DNA of 64,000 nucleotides from Fidelibacterota bacterium (GTDB lineage: Bacteria; Fidelibacterota; Marinisomatia; Marinisomatales; Marinisomataceae): positions 132,566 to 196,565 of the forward strand of contig JBJKZL010000004.1 of the NCBI GenBank assembly GCA_045560295.1, given 5' to 3'. Every line of letters begins with the position of its first letter. Within the stretch, counting starts at the first letter, position 1. The notes below the pieces were generated by a model. That model saw nothing but the letters and a program-made list of their open reading frames with translations. It did no database searches and was not told where the DNA came from. This document shows, piece by piece, positions 28,746-43,441 of this stretch. The position numbers and the translations under genes are program-made.

Positions 28746-28817
28746 TACCGACGGAAGGACTCGAACCTACAACCAAGGGCTTAAAAGGCCCCTGCTCTAC
28801 CATTGAGCTACGTCGGC
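28746..28817 (-). tRNA. tRNA-Lys (anticodon UUU)
   Basis: The reverse complement folds as a cloverleaf: GCCGACG-TA-GCTC-AATGGTA-GAGC-A-GGGGC-CTTTTAA-GCCCT-TGGTT-GTAGG-TTCGAGT-CCTTC-CGTCGGT-A. The anticodon loop CTTTTAA gives UUU. CCA is not encoded. There is one U-U mismatch in the T stem and a G1-U72 wobble pair. Confidence 0.9.
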
Positions 28818-29061: not shown

Positions 29062-29406
29062 GGGGGCGACCGGTTTCGACATTTTAGAAAGAAATTTTAA
29101 GTTGCATGTAGAGCTTAGTAACTCTTAAAACTTCTAAACTGTATTAAGTGCCGATTATGGCCAAATGGCTGTAGCTTAGTTGCTATAACCCATCATCAGT
29201 AGGCGTTTCTCATCGCTGTCTGAATGATGTCATAAAAATGAGATAGCTTATTTTTTTGCTTCGATTAAATAAGTGACCACTTAGAAGATAGTCTTATATT
29301 CGTCTGTTCTTGAACCTGTATAAGGCGAAACTTGATCGAGTAACTAAACATGTAGATATTTATCTTTTCTCTATTATGGACGGGAGTTCGAATCTCCCCG
29401 CCTCCA
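29062..29406 (+). ncRNA. ssrA: tmRNA (SsrA), one-piece
   Basis: The 5' end GGGGGCGACCGGTTTCGAC and the 3' end GGACGGGAGTTCGAATCTCCCCGCCTCCA form a tRNA-Ala-like domain with a G3-U70 pair. The candidate tag frame is 29150-29179: GCC GAT TAT GGC CAA ATG GCT GTA GCT TAG = ADYGQMAVA. It is preceded by TAA+GT, like the E. coli TAG+TC context. The 3' CCA is not encoded; the sequence continues CAC. Confidence 0.9.
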
Positions 29407-29414
29407 CACATATA

Positions 29415-36596: not shown

Positions 36597-37691
36597 ATGA
36601 GCATTATAAAAAACTTTTTTATTGGATTAATACTAGTTTCAACGCTTTTTGCAGGCCAAGATTTAGAGTCAGCGAAAATTAGATTAAAAGATAAAGAGTG
36701 GGATAAGGCAGAAGAGTTTCTACTTAAAGCACTAAATCATCCAAAAGATAAATGGGAAGCAGCATTCCATTTAGCCGACAAAATTTACCCAAGATCTCAA
36801 GATTGGAATAAAGTGAAACAGTACATGGATATTGCCAGTACAGCTTCAGCTAATACTAAGATTAGGCCTACTGCAAACGATAGAAAAATACTGATGTCAC
36901 AAGCTATTGCAGCATCATTAACAAAAAGCTATAATTTACTTTACTATAGAGCAACTGGATTTTTAAGCCTATTAAACAGAGTAAGTGATGTAGACAAAAG
37001 AGACGCTTTAGTAGACCAAGCTATTGATACATCCCTTCAGGCTAAAGAATTAGACCCGTCACAACCTGGGTCTTATGCAATGCTTGGGCTATATTATTCT
37101 ATTAAAGGAGATAAGGACAATGCGTTTAAGTATATCGATCAAGCTCTAGCTTTACCGGACGTCCCACAAGATGTTCAGTTAGCATTGTTAGTTAGTGCTG
37201 GACAGAGCGCAGTACGCCTAGGAGCTTTTGATAAAGGATTAAGCTATTACGAAAGTGCATTAGCAATTAATCCAAATGAAGTACCTGCTTTAAAAAGTTT
37301 GGGTGCATTATATCTTGCAAAAGATGAATTTGAGCCAGCATTAAAAAATCTGAATGCAGCAATAGAAAACTCAGATGATGACAAAGAGAAGGTAGATCTT
37401 TATTTTAACAGAGGATTAGTCTATTTAAAAATGAACGAATTTGATGAGGCAGAATATAATTTTGAGGAAGCATACTTTTTAGCTCCTGATGATACAGAAG
37501 CTCTTCTAGGTCTTGCAAAAGCTTTGGAGCAGGCGGAAAGATGGAGAAAGTCTAGAACATATTATTTAGAACTAATCGATACTGATCCAAATAATGCACA
37601 ATACTACTATGGAGTATATAGAACATATTTTGGCGAAGGTAGATTAGAAGATGCTACTGAGTATCTTAATAAAGCTAACGCACTAAAATAA
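36597..37691 (+). CDS. Secreted tetratricopeptide-repeat protein
   Basis: Signal peptide MSIIKNFFIGLILVSTLFAG and multiple TPR-like A/Y/L-patterned repeats. SD ggagga lies upstream. Confidence 0.7.
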   Translation: MSIIKNFFIGLILVSTLFAGQDLESAKIRLKDKEWDKAEEFLLKALNHPKDKWEAAFHLADKIYPRSQDWNKVKQYMDIASTASANTKIRPTANDRKILMSQAIAASLTKSYNLLYYRATGFLSLLNRVSDVDKRDALVDQAIDTSLQAKELDPSQPGSYAMLGLYYSIKGDKDNAFKYIDQALALPDVPQDVQLALLVSAGQSAVRLGAFDKGLSYYESALAINPNEVPALKSLGALYLAKDEFEPALKNLNAAIENSDDDKEKVDLYFNRGLVYLKMNEFDEAEYNFEEAYFLAPDDTEALLGLAKALEQAERWRKSRTYYLELIDTDPNNAQYYYGVYRTYFGEGRLEDATEYLNKANALK

Positions 37692-37709: not shown

Positions 37710-38657
37710 CTAGTATAAAGAAATACCAAGCTGTTCTTGATAAAATTTGTAAGTTGCGTCTTCGAGAACAACCCCTACAGCACGATAAGCGTTAGCATTA
37801 TCTCTAAATCCGGAATATGGAGTTGCTACTTCAATAGCATTCATTTTACCCTGTCTCTCTTTACCATAAGCTGTTAAAGTATATCCCCCTGAAGTATATC
37901 CCCCTGAAGGAGCATTTGGATTATCTAGAGTTGGGACTACTTGGAAAGAAGAGCCATTATAAGATGCAGCAAATAAGTAATTACCAAAACTACTATATCC
38001 TCTTAGTGTTTCTGCAAATGATGCCGCAGAAATAGAAGATAAGTGGCCGATACTAGATAGAGTACTATAACCAGTATTTAGTACTTCATCGGATAAATTC
38101 AAGTCGCTCTCTGAAAGTAGATAACCAAGCTCAAATTGTTGTGTTGCATGATCATGTTCAACTAGATTTAATAATATACCTGAATCAAAGTTCGCTTCAA
38201 CAGAATCAATTGCTGTTTGCAAATAACTATGATATGTACCATATGATTGATTAGCATAACTATTACCTTGAGCACCATCCATTAAATTAGCATCGGGATC
38301 TAATTTTGTACGACTTAGATTATTATAAATGATATGTGGGAAAAGACCATTTGAGTTTGCATTGAAAAATACCGCAAATTGTTCAGCAACTTTTCTTGTA
38401 TTTACAGCACGCTCAGTATCTCCCATTCTATCTGCCATATTTGAAGGCACTAAAGTTCCATCATGTGGAACAGTAATAATTACAGGAGTATTTCCTACTC
38501 TATATTGAATGTAGCCTTGTCCATCAGATACTAAGTCACCTGGTGTATATATAACAACTGGTGTTGGTACAGTAGACTGTGTGGCTCTATTATTTTCACC
38601 ACAGCTTATTAAAAAGAGCACTAAAAAAATTATATATTTGTTAATATGTTGCGCCAT
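37710..38657 (-). CDS. Hypothetical lipoprotein, possible N-formylglutamate amidohydrolase (FGase)-family fold
   Basis: I prefer the start at M24 of the track ORF, giving MAQHINKYIIFLVLFLISC with a lipobox. The TVPHDG and SRTKLDPDAN motifs resemble the FGase PHxG / SR..D.NR pattern, but this assignment is weak. It overlaps the ggt stop by 17 nt. Confidence 0.45.
   Translation of the reverse strand: MAQHINKYIIFLVLFLISCGENNRATQSTVPTPVVIYTPGDLVSDGQGYIQYRVGNTPVIITVPHDGTLVPSNMADRMGDTERAVNTRKVAEQFAVFFNANSNGLFPHIIYNNLSRTKLDPDANLMDGAQGNSYANQSYGTYHSYLQTAIDSVEANFDSGILLNLVEHDHATQQFELGYLLSESDLNLSDEVLNTGYSTLSSIGHLSSISAASFAETLRGYSSFGNYLFAASYNGSSFQVVPTLDNPNAPSGGYTSGGYTLTAYGKERQGKMNAIEVATPYSGFRDNANAYRAVGVVLEDATYKFYQEQLGISLY
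37879..37908. repeat. Perfect 15-bp tandem duplication (gtatatccccctgaa x2), in frame
   Basis: Read directly at 37879-37893 and 37894-37908. On the minus strand it encodes SGGYT-SGGYT within the lipoprotein. Confidence 0.95.
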
Positions 38658-40428
38658 CGGTTTTATCTCCATTTCCTCTTGTATCAACTCCCGTACTGAA
38701 TTCTCCATTGTTAAAATAGATCCCATGTGCGCGAGCTAAATAATACATCCCTGATTCTACGTTTCCGTCATGTTCAAACATGTGATTAAGTTGTGTTAAT
38801 TCTTTTTTTTGTTTATCTGTTAATGCTTTGGCTTCATATCTTATGACATCTGGAAGCCATTGTGAGTGCGTTCTTGGTAAATCAATCGCTTCTTGTATAC
38901 CAAGATTATGATCTATGACACTAATGATAGTTTGTAGTACCGCAGTAATAATTCTTGATCCACCTGCAGCACCTATTGTCATCATTCTATTTCCTTCTTT
39001 ATCAATAACTAGTGAAGGAGTCATAGAGCTTAAAGGTCTCTTAGAAGGCTGAATAGAATTAGCTGAATAACCAATAAGACCATAAGTATTTTGCTGACCT
39101 GGCTTTGATGAAAAATCATCCATTTCATTATTTAATAAGAATCCTGCCCCATCCACAATTTTTTTATTTCCATAAGAATGATTAATAGTAGTAGTGATAC
39201 CTACAATATTTCCTTGTTTGTCCATCGCAGAATAATGAGTGGTTTCCATACTTTCTTTTAATGCAATCTCTCCAGCAGCAATCTCAGTACTTGGAGTAGC
39301 TTTTTCCATGGAAACTAATGACAACCTTTCTTTTGCATAATCTTTTGATGTTAGCATTGGTATTGGGTTCGGCCAAAAATCTGGATCGCCTAAGTGAATT
39401 GCTCTATCTGCATATGCAAGTCGTTGAATTTCTGTCATCATATGTACAAACTCTGTTGAGTTACGTTCCATAGATTGCAAATCATAATTTTCTAACATGT
39501 TTAGCATCTGAATTAGAAGAGCACCTCCTGAGCTAGGAGGACCCATTGAAACTATTTTACTACCTCTATAACTACCTACCACAGGATCACGATAGACAGA
39601 CTGGTAATTAGCTAAATCTTTTTTTGTGATTAGGCCATTATTTTTTTTCATTTCTGCCACAATTAAATCTGCAATCTCGCCACTATAAAATCCTAAAGCA
39701 CCATTCTGAGCAATTTTTCTTAAAGTCTTTGCTAAATCTTTTTGTACTAAAACATCACCCTCTGACCATTGGTTAAATGACCTCATTTGTTCTATATATT
39801 TATTTTCTGGTATGAGCCCATTCTTAAAGTCTGAACGTAATTTTTGCATTTCAGGTGTGAAATTTTTAACAAAAAGTTTTGATGCTGCTTCATCTTCAAG
39901 AAATAAATGTCTGTACCAATCAAATCCAAATGCAGAACTTTTATTAATTTTGTGACCATTTTCTGCATAATCTATTGCTGGAGCTAGTATTTCTTCTAAA
40001 GTAAATTTACCTGAACCATAATCAATAAATATTTTAATAAGTCCATCTACGGTCCCTGGAACGCCAGACGATTTGTGAGAAAATAAAGCAAGCTCTCTAC
40101 TATATTCATTATTTTCATCTAGAAACATTGTTTCATAAGAGTCTGCTGGAGCTTCCTCTCTAAAGTCTAATGTAAAAACTTCGCCACTCTCTGTTTGTGC
40201 GACTAAAAATCCACCACCACCAATATTACCATTGGCTGGAGATGTTACAGCTAAAGTAAAGCCAGTAGCTACAATAGCATCAAATGCATTTCCGCCTTGT
40301 TTTAAAATATCAATACCAACTTCTGATGCTAGACGAGAAGTGGAGGATATAGCACCATTTGTATTATTAGTAGTATTGTTACTACAGCTAGTTAAAAGTA
40401 CTATGATGCTGATTAGAATGTATTTCAT
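38641..40428 (-). CDS. ggt: Gamma-glutamyltransferase, lipoprotein
   Basis: 595 aa with lipobox LLTSC, the autoprocessing/catalytic Thr context ESMETTHYSAMD, and the small-subunit motif MDDFS...GQQNTYGL. Confidence 0.9.
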   Translation of the reverse strand: MKYILISIIVLLTSCSNNTTNNTNGAISSTSRLASEVGIDILKQGGNAFDAIVATGFTLAVTSPANGNIGGGGFLVAQTESGEVFTLDFREEAPADSYETMFLDENNEYSRELALFSHKSSGVPGTVDGLIKIFIDYGSGKFTLEEILAPAIDYAENGHKINKSSAFGFDWYRHLFLEDEAASKLFVKNFTPEMQKLRSDFKNGLIPENKYIEQMRSFNQWSEGDVLVQKDLAKTLRKIAQNGALGFYSGEIADLIVAEMKKNNGLITKKDLANYQSVYRDPVVGSYRGSKIVSMGPPSSGGALLIQMLNMLENYDLQSMERNSTEFVHMMTEIQRLAYADRAIHLGDPDFWPNPIPMLTSKDYAKERLSLVSMEKATPSTEIAAGEIALKESMETTHYSAMDKQGNIVGITTTINHSYGNKKIVDGAGFLLNNEMDDFSSKPGQQNTYGLIGYSANSIQPSKRPLSSMTPSLVIDKEGNRMMTIGAAGGSRIITAVLQTIISVIDHNLGIQEAIDLPRTHSQWLPDVIRYEAKALTDKQKKELTQLNHMFEHDGNVESGMYYLARAHGIYFNNGEFSTGVDTRGNGDKTDGATY

Positions 40429-40453
40429 TTTTTTAATTTTTTAGTCAATCAAA

Positions 40454-40461
40454 ATTATACA
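40454..40461 (-). promoter_or_regulatory. Extended -10 element (TGTATAAT) upstream of ggt
   Basis: The reverse complement of attataca at 40454-40461 is tgtataat. It lies about 26 nt upstream of the ggt ATG and downstream of the receptor terminator. Confidence 0.35.
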
Positions 40462-40470
40462 TTGAAGATA

Positions 40471-40508
40471 ATAAAAAGCCTCTACAAAGAATAGAGGCTT
40501 TTTATTTT
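40471..40508 (-). terminator. Intrinsic (bidirectional) terminator after the TonB-dependent receptor
   Basis: aagcctcta (40476-40484) pairs with tagaggctt (40492-40500) around a 7-nt loop. A/T runs flank it on both sides. Confidence 0.7.
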
Positions 40509-40531
40509 ATTCAGTTATAATAACGTTACTA

Positions 40532-43324
40532 TTATAGTGTCATATCTAGACGAGTATATACGTAACGTCCGTTAAATCCAAATGGACTATATCCAGAATG
40601 CTGGAATATTCCATTGAAACTATTTCTTTTAATAGTTTTATCAGGATACACATCGAACATGTTATTCACACCAAATGAAACACGAACTTGACTGTTTGCC
40701 TGGAATGAGTATTCCATGTCTGTAGTCCATTTGCCGCTTAAAACTTGTTCTCTTTCTACTGATCCTGATGGAATTGTTACTTCACCCCAACGGTTAAGTT
40801 TAACCATCCAAGTTGTAGTTGGTCTTTGAACTCTCGCTGAAAACTGGAATGCTTCCGCAGGAGATGAACTTTCAAACCTTACAGTATTAGCACGTCCTAA
40901 CAACTGGTCAGTTGTATAGTCAGCTAATGCTGCTGGAGTTACAAGATCACCTTTATTGGTAACTTCAGTATCATTAAAGTTCATAGCTGCCTTAAGAAGC
41001 AGTGAACCGTTTGAGAGGTCTTGAGTCATAGTCGCAACTATGTCTAAACCATTTGTTTCAGTATTAATTCCGTTAAAGAAGTATCTTCCACCAACTGCTG
41101 GAATTCCTCTGTCAGCAAAGAATGTTGCCATATCAGAAGTTGCACCAGAACCATTGAAGGTTTCACTCATAGTAATACGGTCATCTACTTTAATTTGATA
41201 AGCGTCTACAGATACAGTAAATGTATCATCTTTATAAGTCATACCCGCTGAAAGGTTTGTTGATGTTTCAGGCTCTAAGTCTTTTGCACCTAAAGCTCTA
41301 GCTGGCTCTGTATCAACTGGGAATGTTCCTACTTCATAAGGAATTCCATCAATAAAGTTAGTTGCAATAGATGAGAAGTAAGCTTCTTGTAAAGCTGGTG
41401 CTCTAAATCCTGTGCTAAATGAACCTCTAGCAGCTACACCGTCTTGTAACTCATATCTCATTGCAATTTTACCATTAGTTGTTTGACCAAAGTCGCTATA
41501 ATTTTCTGTTCTTAATGCAACGTTTACTAACAAGTTATCACGAACGTCAGCTTCAGCGTCAACATAAACACTAAAAGCATCTCTATCACGATCTTGCTCG
41601 TTATTAGGAGCTAGTCCTGGTAAACATTGACAACCTACTGCTGCAGAAGCACCAGCATTTGGTCCATCTAATACATCAAAACCGCCGTCAGCATAACCTG
41701 CTTCTTCACCAGCTTCAATAGTATAGTTTTCCATGCGCATTTCAGCACCCATAGCAAGACTTACTGGTCCAGCAAATCCTTCCATGTCCATTTGTGTTGT
41801 CACATCAAAGTTAACAGTTGTTTGGCTATAGCCTAATGTTCCTAGATCAAACTCAGATTGTTGTCCTGGGCCTGTACCATAAGTTGCATTATGACTATTT
41901 TGCATACCCCATTGGAAATCATTAGATCCAGTATTTACACTTAGATCATATGCATAATCTCCCATAAGTCCTTTCATTCCTACTGCCATAGATTTGTCAG
42001 ATAGGGTAGGACTAATTAAAGGTAAAAATCCATCTGGATACCATGCACGTAGAGTACGATTATCTTGTGCTCTTCTGTAATAACATCCACTTTCACCGTC
42101 ACGGCTATTGAATCCACCAAATGTGTATAAAGTACCACGTTCCATTGGGAAACTACCGTTCCACATCATACTTACTTGTTCAAAGTTACCAGCGCCAATA
42201 CGATGATTTTCTCTGTCAAATGCAGCTTCTTCTGCATCCATGCCAGCAAAGTATTGTCTTCTAGGGTCTAGTCCAGCACGGTTTGTACGACCACCGTCAC
42301 GAATTTGACCACTAACATATAGATTACCACCAAACATTTCCATACCGTTACCAGCATGAATAATTAGGTTTCTTCCATCTGTTTTGTGTACTGTTTCATT
42401 TCCTGAACGAGCCCATCCGCGAGCAGCAGTATATGGCAAGTATCCAGTACCTTCATTGTAACCTTCACCATCAAGATCCCAACCGTAAGTTGAGTCATCT
42501 TGACCATCGATCAAGCCTTCACCAGCTGCATACCCTCTGTCAAAATAAGAATCATTTCGACCGTAGGTAACGCTCATGTCTGCTCCACCTGTTTCTTTTA
42601 ATATTAAATTAATAACACCTGCGACAGCATCTGAACCGTATTTAGCTGCAGCACCATCACGCAAGACTTCAATTTTAGCAATTGCACTTGCTGGGATAGC
42701 ATTTAAGTCAACCTGAGTTGAACCACGACCAACTGAACCGTTTACGTGTACTAATGCACCTTGATGACGTCTCTTACCATTCACTAGTACTAGAGTCTGA
42801 TTTGGTGCCATACCACGTAAAGTAGCAGGTCTCATATGGTCAGAACCATCAGTAATGTAGCCTTTAGGCGCATTATAAGATGGAACTAATGCTTGTAATA
42901 AGTCATTGGTTTCAGTGAAACCAGATGCACGAATTTCAAGCTCAGTAATGACTTCTACTGGAACTGCTTGTTCGTCCACATTTCTTGCAAAACGAGATCC
43001 AAGAACTGAGACAGAATTACCAGAAACTGCACTAGATGCTAGTGAGAAGTTTGCGGTTGCAGAACCATCTACATTTACAGAAACACTTGCAGATTCATAT
43101 CCAATGTATGAAGCAGTAACAGTATATGCACCACTTGACACACCGTCGACTGAATATGATCCGTCGGCTGCTGTTGCAGCACCAGATGATGTTCCTTCAA
43201 CTGTTACATTTGCACCAAAAAGAGCATTACCTGCTCCGTCAGTCACGGTACCTGAGACTGAACCTTGTGCAAACATAAAGCTGGAAATCATGACTAGCGC
43301 TATCACATTATATAGCTTTCTCAT
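40532..43324 (-). CDS. TonB-dependent outer membrane receptor with N-terminal carboxypeptidase-regulatory-like domain
   Basis: 930 aa with signal peptide MRKLYNVIALVMISSFMFAQG. The N-domain reads GSVSGTVTDGAGNALFGANVTVEG...YTVTASYIGYES. Plug-domain motifs follow (VLVNGKRR, IEVLRDGAAAKYGSDAVAGVINLILK), then a long beta-barrel. Confidence 0.9.
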   Translation of the reverse strand: MRKLYNVIALVMISSFMFAQGSVSGTVTDGAGNALFGANVTVEGTSSGAATAADGSYSVDGVSSGAYTVTASYIGYESASVSVNVDGSATANFSLASSAVSGNSVSVLGSRFARNVDEQAVPVEVITELEIRASGFTETNDLLQALVPSYNAPKGYITDGSDHMRPATLRGMAPNQTLVLVNGKRRHQGALVHVNGSVGRGSTQVDLNAIPASAIAKIEVLRDGAAAKYGSDAVAGVINLILKETGGADMSVTYGRNDSYFDRGYAAGEGLIDGQDDSTYGWDLDGEGYNEGTGYLPYTAARGWARSGNETVHKTDGRNLIIHAGNGMEMFGGNLYVSGQIRDGGRTNRAGLDPRRQYFAGMDAEEAAFDRENHRIGAGNFEQVSMMWNGSFPMERGTLYTFGGFNSRDGESGCYYRRAQDNRTLRAWYPDGFLPLISPTLSDKSMAVGMKGLMGDYAYDLSVNTGSNDFQWGMQNSHNATYGTGPGQQSEFDLGTLGYSQTTVNFDVTTQMDMEGFAGPVSLAMGAEMRMENYTIEAGEEAGYADGGFDVLDGPNAGASAAVGCQCLPGLAPNNEQDRDRDAFSVYVDAEADVRDNLLVNVALRTENYSDFGQTTNGKIAMRYELQDGVAARGSFSTGFRAPALQEAYFSSIATNFIDGIPYEVGTFPVDTEPARALGAKDLEPETSTNLSAGMTYKDDTFTVSVDAYQIKVDDRITMSETFNGSGATSDMATFFADRGIPAVGGRYFFNGINTETNGLDIVATMTQDLSNGSLLLKAAMNFNDTEVTNKGDLVTPAALADYTTDQLLGRANTVRFESSSPAEAFQFSARVQRPTTTWMVKLNRWGEVTIPSGSVEREQVLSGKWTTDMEYSFQANSQVRVSFGVNNMFDVYPDKTIKRNSFNGIFQHSGYSPFGFNGRYVYTRLDMTL

Positions 43325-43364
43325 TGTTTTCTTCCTTTTTTTATGTACATATTAATAAAAATTT

Positions 43365-43392
43365 GGTACGTACCTCTATCTCTATAGAGGTA
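43365..43392 (-). promoter_or_regulatory. Structured element in the receptor 5' UTR: 10-bp palindrome ggtacgtacc overlapping a 9-bp stem-loop
   Basis: tacctctat (43371-43379) pairs with atagaggta (43384-43392) around a 4-nt loop. The perfect palindrome ggtacgtacc lies at 43365-43374. The element sits between the predicted promoter and the SD. Confidence 0.4.
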
Positions 43393-43412
43393 AAATTACC
43401 CTTAGTTGATGT

Positions 43413-43441
43413 AACTTATCGTAAGAGGAGGTTAATGTCAA
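43413..43441 (-). promoter_or_regulatory. Sigma-70-like promoter (TTGACA-N17-TAAGTT) for the TonB-dependent receptor
   Basis: Minus-strand TTGACA at 43441..43436, a 17-nt spacer, and TAAGTT at 43418..43413. Confidence 0.5.

Follow-up and report, generated by a model that had tools for sequence, protein, structure and literature searches.

A receptor, gamma-glutamyltransferase and FGase-like lipoprotein locus of SAR406/Marinimicrobia and its possible role in the acquisition of gamma-glutamyl compounds

The locus and its closest described counterparts

Poly-gamma-glutamate degradation in Bacillus relies on an exo-acting gamma-glutamyltransferase (GGT) and a zinc hydrolase, PghP (PF05908) or PgdS, with CapD in B. 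anthracis. The locus that we describe here follows the same logic, in that it combines a GGT-family enzyme with a protein of predicted M14-like fold, the pair of components that in Bacillus acts on a gamma-glutamyl polymer. It lies in a 64-kb stretch of DNA from a Fidelibacterota bacterium (GenBank assembly GCA_045560295.1, contig JBJKZL010000004.1, positions 132,566 to 196,565; G+C ~33%), hereafter called the window, and had been pointed out in an earlier reading of the letters (the original prediction). Three consecutive open reading frames (ORFs), all on the minus strand and at the coordinates first proposed, encode a TonB-dependent receptor, a lipoprotein GGT and a second lipoprotein, which we call X and whose matches carry Fidelibacterota/Marinimicrobia names:

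40532..43324, minus strand: TonB-dependent receptor, 930 aa
38641..40428, minus strand: lipoprotein GGT, 595 aa
37710..38657, minus strand: X lipoprotein, 315 aa, lipobox LISC with Cys19
38641..38657, minus strand: overlap of 17 nt between the 3' end of the GGT gene and the start of X

The resemblance to the Bacillus system has its limits. X has no PF05908 match and its predicted fold is nearer to that of N-formylglutamate amidohydrolase (FGase) than to that of PghP, whereas the window lacks pgs genes, has an E. coli-like GGT with a lid loop, and includes a TonB-dependent importer. The polysaccharide-utilisation locus offers a second comparison: there, too, lipoprotein genes stand beside that of a TonB-dependent transporter which has a CarboxypepD_reg domain, and X could match the capturing role if it is a non-catalytic lipoprotein that binds a ligand, as we suppose. 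However, no SusD-like ORF adjoins the receptor, the GGT or X, the receptor reaches 68.7 bits against the SusC/RagA model TIGR04056, far under the cutoff of 368.25, and the presumed substrate is gamma-glutamyl and not a glycan.

X itself is best compared with the FGase family (PF05013; HutG/TIGR02017; structures 2Q7S and 2ODF), with which it is predicted to share the overall fold, the PHxG motif, the Arg and Asp of R...D, the YH helix and the GG in the C-terminal half. In contrast to FGase, X is without the LHS histidine, the QxE glutamate, the NR pair and the Asp before helix 1, scores below the PF05013 cutoff (17.5 bits against 28.9), and carries an insertion of ~50 residues that forms a helical subdomain in the AlphaFold2 model (residues 183-230). 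Unlike cytoplasmic FGase it is an exported lipoprotein, and unlike HutG it is not part of a hut operon, its neighbours being the receptor, the GGT, a tetratricopeptide repeat (TPR) protein and a PfkB kinase. Closer still is a secreted FGase-like family of the Fibrobacteres-Chlorobi-Bacteroidetes (FCB) group (for example L037:9929-11134 and L018:34-1329, in our numbering of loci), which is homologous to X with E-values down to 1e-56 and 30-38% identity. Both have matching domain boundaries, are exported and stand beside GGT and TonB-dependent transporter genes. They differ in that the members of the secreted family have the signature HGDRDNRDHHHQE and are secreted by the type IX secretion system (T9SS) or carry Ig-like domains, whereas X, whose signature is HDARDDANVHHEA, is a lipoprotein without such additions.

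With moderate confidence, we read the locus as a conserved envelope module of SAR406/Marinimicrobia that acquires gamma-glutamyl-linked compounds, with X as a binding or accessory partner of the GGT rather than a canonical hydrolase.

Fold, signature and selection of X

The similarity of X to known families is faint in sequence searches. Besides the low PF05013 score, the match to TIGR02017 (HutG) reaches 25.3 bits against a cutoff of 278.75 (E 9e-6) and is confined to the N-terminus, and searches of PDB sequences with X, with a profile of its clade and with a profile of the wider family returned nothing meaningful. An AlphaFold2 model built on a 134-sequence alignment has a pLDDT of 93.6 (an earlier run, on a 19-sequence alignment of the clade only, gave 32 and was discarded). 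Its top Foldseek match in the PDB is the FGase 2Q7S (E 2e-7, TM ~0.5), followed by 2ODF (Atu2144) and then by a putative metallopeptidase, cytosolic carboxypeptidase 5 (CCP5) and carboxypeptidase A, so that on this model X has an FGase/M14-like alpha/beta fold. The weak likeness to FGase that had been proposed from motifs thus stands as regards the fold, and 28 of 45 sampled family members match PF05013 (13 of the 45 have a T9SS sorting tail and others have Ig-like domains), whereas the sequence of X remains under the threshold. The companion suggestion of N-formylglutamate as substrate did not hold up, as nothing points there specifically and a hut context is absent. We also considered X as a poly-gamma-glutamate hydrolase of the PghP type and rejected this identity: in Pfam there is no PF05908 match, and phage PghP is only a weak match in the fold search, at rank 10 among viral structures (E 5.6e-3, TM 0.33-0.41).

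What distinguishes X from its relatives is the state of its signature residues. The 75 family members found in GTDB genomes are all canonical or nearly so, and 71 of them have the exact canonical signature. We compared the conservation of these positions between 260 proteins of the wider family and 121 members of the clade of X:

Position 84: D in 99% of the wider family; A in 100% of the X clade
Position 122: N in 99% of the wider family; D in 98% of the X clade
Position 123: R in 98% of the wider family; L or A in the X clade
Position 164: D in 100% of the wider family; N in 100% of the X clade
Position 166: H in 99% of the wider family; V in 100% of the X clade
Position 276: Q in 98% of the wider family; D or E in 100% of the X clade
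Position 278: E in 99% of the wider family; A in 100% of the X clade

Five residues with a conservation of 98% or more in the wider family have been replaced in the clade (D84A, N122D, R123L/A, H166V and E278A). X itself has A84, D122, A123, V166 and A278, while H65, R116 and D120 are kept.

The consensus motifs of the wider family (APHGG, D..T.ELA, R.KLDANRE, DLHGHGH.IQRLELGY, GGYNT.RHGS and VQIE.N..GVRD) follow the same order as those of 2Q7S (PHSG, EDTH, R..YIDPNR, LNLHS and LQIE). In both hmmsearch and hhalign the DLH of the family aligns with the NLH of 2Q7S, which makes position 166 the LHS histidine of that structure. When the family profile was compared by hhalign with 2Q7S alone or with 15 aligned FGase sequences, the outcome was a short alignment of low probability that agrees at DLH/NLH, and the other equivalences, including that of the QxE Glu, rest on the order and spacing of the motifs. 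Enzymes of the M14 type bind zinc with a His, a Glu or Asp and a second His, and have a general-base Glu on a late strand and an Asn-Arg carboxylate clamp. By analogy with them, the positions replaced in X are presumably those that would bind the metal and catalyse. Our literature searches on the FGase active site found no experimental paper.

These replacements are not the mark of a gene in decay. X is under purifying selection, with dN/dS of 0.11-0.20, values comparable to those of GGT and receptor, and its ORF is intact in more than 120 clusters; we rejected the idea of a decaying pseudogene on these grounds. Since X is under purifying selection with five signature residues replaced, canonical zinc hydrolysis is unlikely. 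The two-step periplasmic hydrolysis that had been envisaged, with X as a zinc amidohydrolase, becomes doubtful given the loss of five signature residues, among them the His aligned with that of LHS. The nearest outgroup, P0122, is 48% identical to X, is also a lipoprotein, also overlaps a GGT gene, and keeps the whole signature.

A possible but somewhat unlikely alternative is that X is still an enzyme, whose metal or catalytic centre would have been rewired from H65, D66, E167, H168 and D/E276 and would act on the product of the GGT or on a related amide such as a dipeptide or a gamma-glutamyl amine; this would restore the two-step hydrolysis. The pocket positions are indeed invariant and not relaxed among the 121 clade members (D66 100%, E167 98%, H168 100%, D/E276 100%), D276 precedes the lost E278 by two residues within one predicted strand, the purifying selection is strong, and enzymes of the FGase family are annotated as acting on gamma-glutamyl amides. 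However, the five hallmark residues, including the canonical FGase His and the Asn-Arg pair, were lost together, and the related degenerate lineage P0123 differs at the lost positions (K84, S123, T166 and S278), as if these were unused. Of the two readings, we prefer a non-catalytic binding or accessory protein to a rewired active site.

Gamma-glutamyl genes around the wider family

A profile search of 1.84 billion representative proteins retrieved 1568 clusters of the X family. We analysed the surroundings of canonical members in 80 loci, obtained from a search with a 7-sequence alignment in which each GTDB species was represented by a single genome. The hosts are Saprospiraceae, Chitinophagales, Gemmatimonadota, Ignavibacteriota, Lentisphaeria and Verrucomicrobia, together with one Neomarinimicrobiota metagenome-assembled genome (MAG). 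A GGT gene lies within 10 kb of the family member in 6 of the 80 loci, against 0.24-0.94 expected if GGT genes occur at 0.25-1 per Mb, a density that we assumed, in the 0.94 Mb of flanks, the loci being partly non-independent. In L018 and L020 the two genes are directly adjacent. The order in L018 (Gemmatimonadaceae) is X-family gene, GGT and a CarboxypepD_reg-Plug receptor, and in L035 (Saprospiraceae) it is X-family gene, GGT, SusC-like and SusD-like; pairs of SusC and SusD directly flank X-family genes in several further loci. The linkage that the original prediction expected in relatives is thus found beyond the lineage, with GGT in the six loci and the trio in L018 and L035.

Genes of poly-gamma-glutamate metabolism recur in the same surroundings, which strengthens the originally proposed link to gamma-glutamyl chemistry. 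The poly-gamma-glutamate system protein TIGR04332 is present in 8 of the 80 loci and a glutamate-racemase-like gene in ~11, and PgsB, PgsC and TIGR04332 are all above their cutoffs next to family members in L023, L037 and L041. Because GGT, transporter and poly-gamma-glutamate genes recur by family members, a functional link of the family to gamma-glutamyl substrates is supported, and the association makes it most likely that the targets of the family are amide bonds of the gamma-glutamyl or N-acyl-glutamate kind. The table of a review (PMC9397018) names a PF05013 enzyme gamma-glutamyl-glycine amidohydrolase, a precedent for gamma-glutamyl amides as substrates of this family. We searched the literature for poly-gamma-glutamate in Bacteroidetes, for GGT with SusD and for Marinimicrobia with GGT, and found nothing relevant.

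The large poly-gamma-glutamate loci have a rich composition. The one in the Neomarinimicrobiota MAG (L037:162-16720) encodes two AstE/AspA-like hydrolases, a DUF6305 protein, two GGTs, a racemase, PgsB, PgsC, TIGR04332 and the FGase-like protein with a T9SS tail (L037:9929-11134), followed by a two-component system made of a sensor kinase and a sigma-54 regulator. L041 and L023 are loci of the same type in MAGs of the FCB group; in the latter, an Ignavibacteriota MAG, a tandem pair of canonical FGase-like genes (L023:8988-11761) stands upstream of a racemase-like gene, near GGT and pgsBC. In a different setting, canonical FGase-like genes are found beside a PSCyt1/PSCyt2/PSD1 (DUF1549/DUF1553) protein and a DUF1501 protein (L064:11234-15012 and L087:6465-10353).

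Such loci could suggest that the module of the window remodels or anchors the cell's own poly-gamma-glutamate capsule instead of taking up nutrients, the GGT being a CapD-like transpeptidase and X a binder of the polymer. The canonical members within pgsB-pgsC-TIGR04332 loci that also contain GGT paralogues (L023, L037 and L041, one of them in a Neomarinimicrobiota MAG) speak for this reading, which we nevertheless consider very improbable. A tblastn search of the 64-kb window with the L037 set found no homologues of pgsB, pgsC, TIGR04332 or the racemase, and only the GGT and X were matched. The GGT is closest to those of E. coli and H. pylori (E 1e-130) and much further from CapD (E 3e-34), its lid loop is kept, and the neighbouring gene encodes a TonB-dependent importer.

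Receptor, GGT and the expression of the module

The 930-aa ORF had been called a TonB-dependent receptor, and domain matches above the cutoffs agree: PF13715 and PF13620 (CarboxypepD_reg) at the N-terminus, PF07715 (Plug, 67.8 bits) and PF00593 (TonB_dep_Rec_b-barrel, 108.3 bits). Its dN/dS relative to orthologues is 0.11-0.18. In one relative (L002:3272-6098, GCA_902529705.1) the orthologous receptor is split into ORFs of 879 and 61 aa in different frames, which is a frameshift or an assembly error.

The assignment of the second gene as a GGT with a lipobox is equally clear (PF01019, E 1.4e-150; TIGR00066, 498 bits against a cutoff of 358; lipobox LTSC with Cys15). Its best solved relative is the E. 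coli GGT 2E0W (E 1e-130), an alignment with which puts T396 of TTHYS at the position of the nucleophile. The GGSRI motif, with the GG of the oxyanion hole, is retained, and the lid loop, including its Tyr, equals that of E. coli GGT in length. With the Thr nucleophile and the lid loop kept, the enzyme is predicted to be catalytically intact. An insertion of ~27 residues relative to E. coli GGT lies between two aligned blocks, at residues ~185-221. When the window is compared with L001, the GGT has diverged more than its neighbours (69% amino acid identity and dS 1.25, against 89% and 0.55 for X and 93% and 0.40 for the receptor), and the GGT of the window is closest to that of L002. This pattern suggests recombination or allele exchange confined to the GGT.

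The longest mechanical ORF of X has 338 aa and begins with the ATG at 38726. We retained the start at 38657 (315 aa) because the N-termini of the homologues, an upstream GGAG and the invariant lipobox Cys19 agree on it; the GGAG precedes this ATG by 9-12 nt. The overlap of 17 nt with the end of the GGT gene, already part of the original prediction, is therefore upheld, and an overlap is kept in relatives: it measures 26-32 nt in L001-L003 and L006 and is retained down to the relative with 48% identity. Such an arrangement would imply translational coupling of X to the GGT.

Several candidate signals of transcription surround these genes:

43413..43441, minus strand: putative sigma-70-like promoter of the receptor gene, TTGACA, 17-nt spacer, TAAGTT
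43365..43400, minus strand: hairpin in the receptor leader, -15.1 kcal/mol, z -3.4
40471..40504, minus strand: intercistronic hairpin with U-run between receptor and GGT, -22.7 kcal/mol, z -7.8
40454..40461, minus strand: TG immediately followed by a perfect TATAAT, resembling a -10 element, upstream of the GGT, read from the sequence

The receptor had been given a promoter and a terminator of its own, a proposal that stands in part. The -35 element (TTGACA, 43441-43436) lies in a block, ATTGACAT, that is invariant in L001-L003, but the -10 element (TAAGTT, 43418-43413) is weak, matching TATAAT at 3 of 6 positions, and a consensus promoter scan did not call the site. The hairpin of the leader is flanked by the invariant blocks ATTGACAT and TTTATTAATATGTACATAAA, and its stem is retained in L001-L003 despite base changes. 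It matches no Rfam family, either at gathering thresholds or at E-values up to 1, and may have a regulatory function or may terminate the BaxI-like gene that lies upstream. As regards the terminator, none of 200 shuffles is as stable as the intercistronic hairpin, which is followed by a U-run and is identical base for base in L001-L003, whose proteins diverge to 66-90% identity. This suggests an intrinsic terminator or an attenuator.

The separate promoter proposed for the GGT, an extended -10 element, fared worse. The letters TG-TATAAT are present in the window, yet the segment that contains them is absent from L001 and L003, and it is therefore not a conserved promoter. In these two relatives the ATG of the GGT follows within ~15 nt of the hairpin, so near that no room is left for a GGT promoter. 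As judged from these sequence features, receptor, GGT and X are more likely to be a single operon that contains an attenuating or stabilising hairpin than two units.

The trio is present in every SAR406 relative compared, and so are its flanks in all close relatives, with topA, glyS, BaxI-like, TPR protein, pfkB and mnmA genes. One could thus see in the cluster nothing but lineage-specific synteny, with no functional tie between the receptor and GGT-X or between X and gamma-glutamyl compounds. The synteny of the whole neighbourhood and the strong terminator-like hairpin between receptor and GGT speak for such a view, but we think that it has little chance of being right: the GGT/X overlap is conserved, other phyla show an excess of GGT genes beside canonical members, L018 and L035 have all three families side by side, and the GGT of L001 and L003 lacks room for its own promoter.

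In the envelope module that we favour, the receptor gene would be transcribed from the promoter ~115 nt upstream, and the hairpin past its stop codon would probably let only part of the transcripts continue into GGT and X, with the result that the receptor may be made in large amounts and the other two proteins in smaller ones. The receptor would import gamma-glutamyl compounds, and the lipid-anchored GGT, whose family and residues are established, would release glutamate from gamma-glutamyl donors. X, translationally coupled to the GGT, would be made in fixed proportion with it and would probably bind the substrate or the product, or assist the GGT, which is the least certain step. We regard as unlikely, and hence put forward only tentatively, a more specific version in which X, as a lipoprotein and pseudoenzyme, would capture polymers or peptides of the gamma-glutamyl type at the envelope and hand them to the GGT and the receptor. 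If X captures ligands in this way, the candidates could include fragments of poly-gamma-glutamate, glutathione and phytochelatin-type compounds.

Several points weigh against this module. The E. coli-type lid loop of the GGT favours small gamma-glutamyl donors or oligomers over long polymers. The roles of the residues lost in X are deduced from their conservation, from the correspondence with FGase motifs and from the analogy with M14 carboxypeptidases. The clade of X has gained invariant acidic residues near the lost ones (D66, D122, E167 and D/E276) and keeps H65 and H168, and a relocated metal site with retained catalysis may exist. As regards gene context, the linkage of the trio inside the SAR406 lineage is uninformative because the housekeeping flanks are equally syntenic there. 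The association of the family with SusC/SusD is weaker evidence, and may be partly due to chance, because these genes are so common in Bacteroidota. Finally, the receptors beside canonical relatives share ~27% identity with that of the window, in the N-terminal domains only, and we rejected these transporters as its orthologues.

The remaining features of the neighbourhood concern other genes. An exported TPR-repeat protein is encoded on the plus strand (36597-37691), convergent to X, and its gene is still the next one downstream of X in L006 and L007, the clade members at the greatest distance. The window also contains a tmRNA gene (29062-29409, plus strand, 159.5 bits) and a tRNA gene (28746-28817, minus strand).

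The components of this locus are of known kinds. What is new is their combination, the connection of the family with poly-gamma-glutamate loci, and a signature that a whole clade has lost under selection; we found none of the three in the literature searched. The clade of X is widespread in ocean metagenomes, where one cluster at 90% identity occurs on 177 contigs and in 329 index blocks, including TARA samples. SAR406/Marinimicrobia are uncultured and among the most abundant such lineages of the ocean, and because they are uncultured, gene-level hypotheses on their uptake of dissolved organic nitrogen are valuable. Beyond this lineage, at least 1568 clusters of secreted FGase-like proteins are linked to GGT and poly-gamma-glutamate loci, a link that spans Bacteroidota, Gemmatimonadota, Ignavibacteriota, Lentisphaerota and Marinimicrobia and gives concrete candidate substrates. 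X and P0122, which keeps the signature and also follows a GGT gene, form a comparison pair for the repurposing of an enzyme fold. If X is indeed a pseudoenzyme that binds its ligand, the locus would represent a non-glycan, SusD-independent type of utilisation locus in an abundant uncultured ocean lineage, and a large unstudied FGase-like family would be tied to poly-gamma-glutamate turnover across the FCB group.

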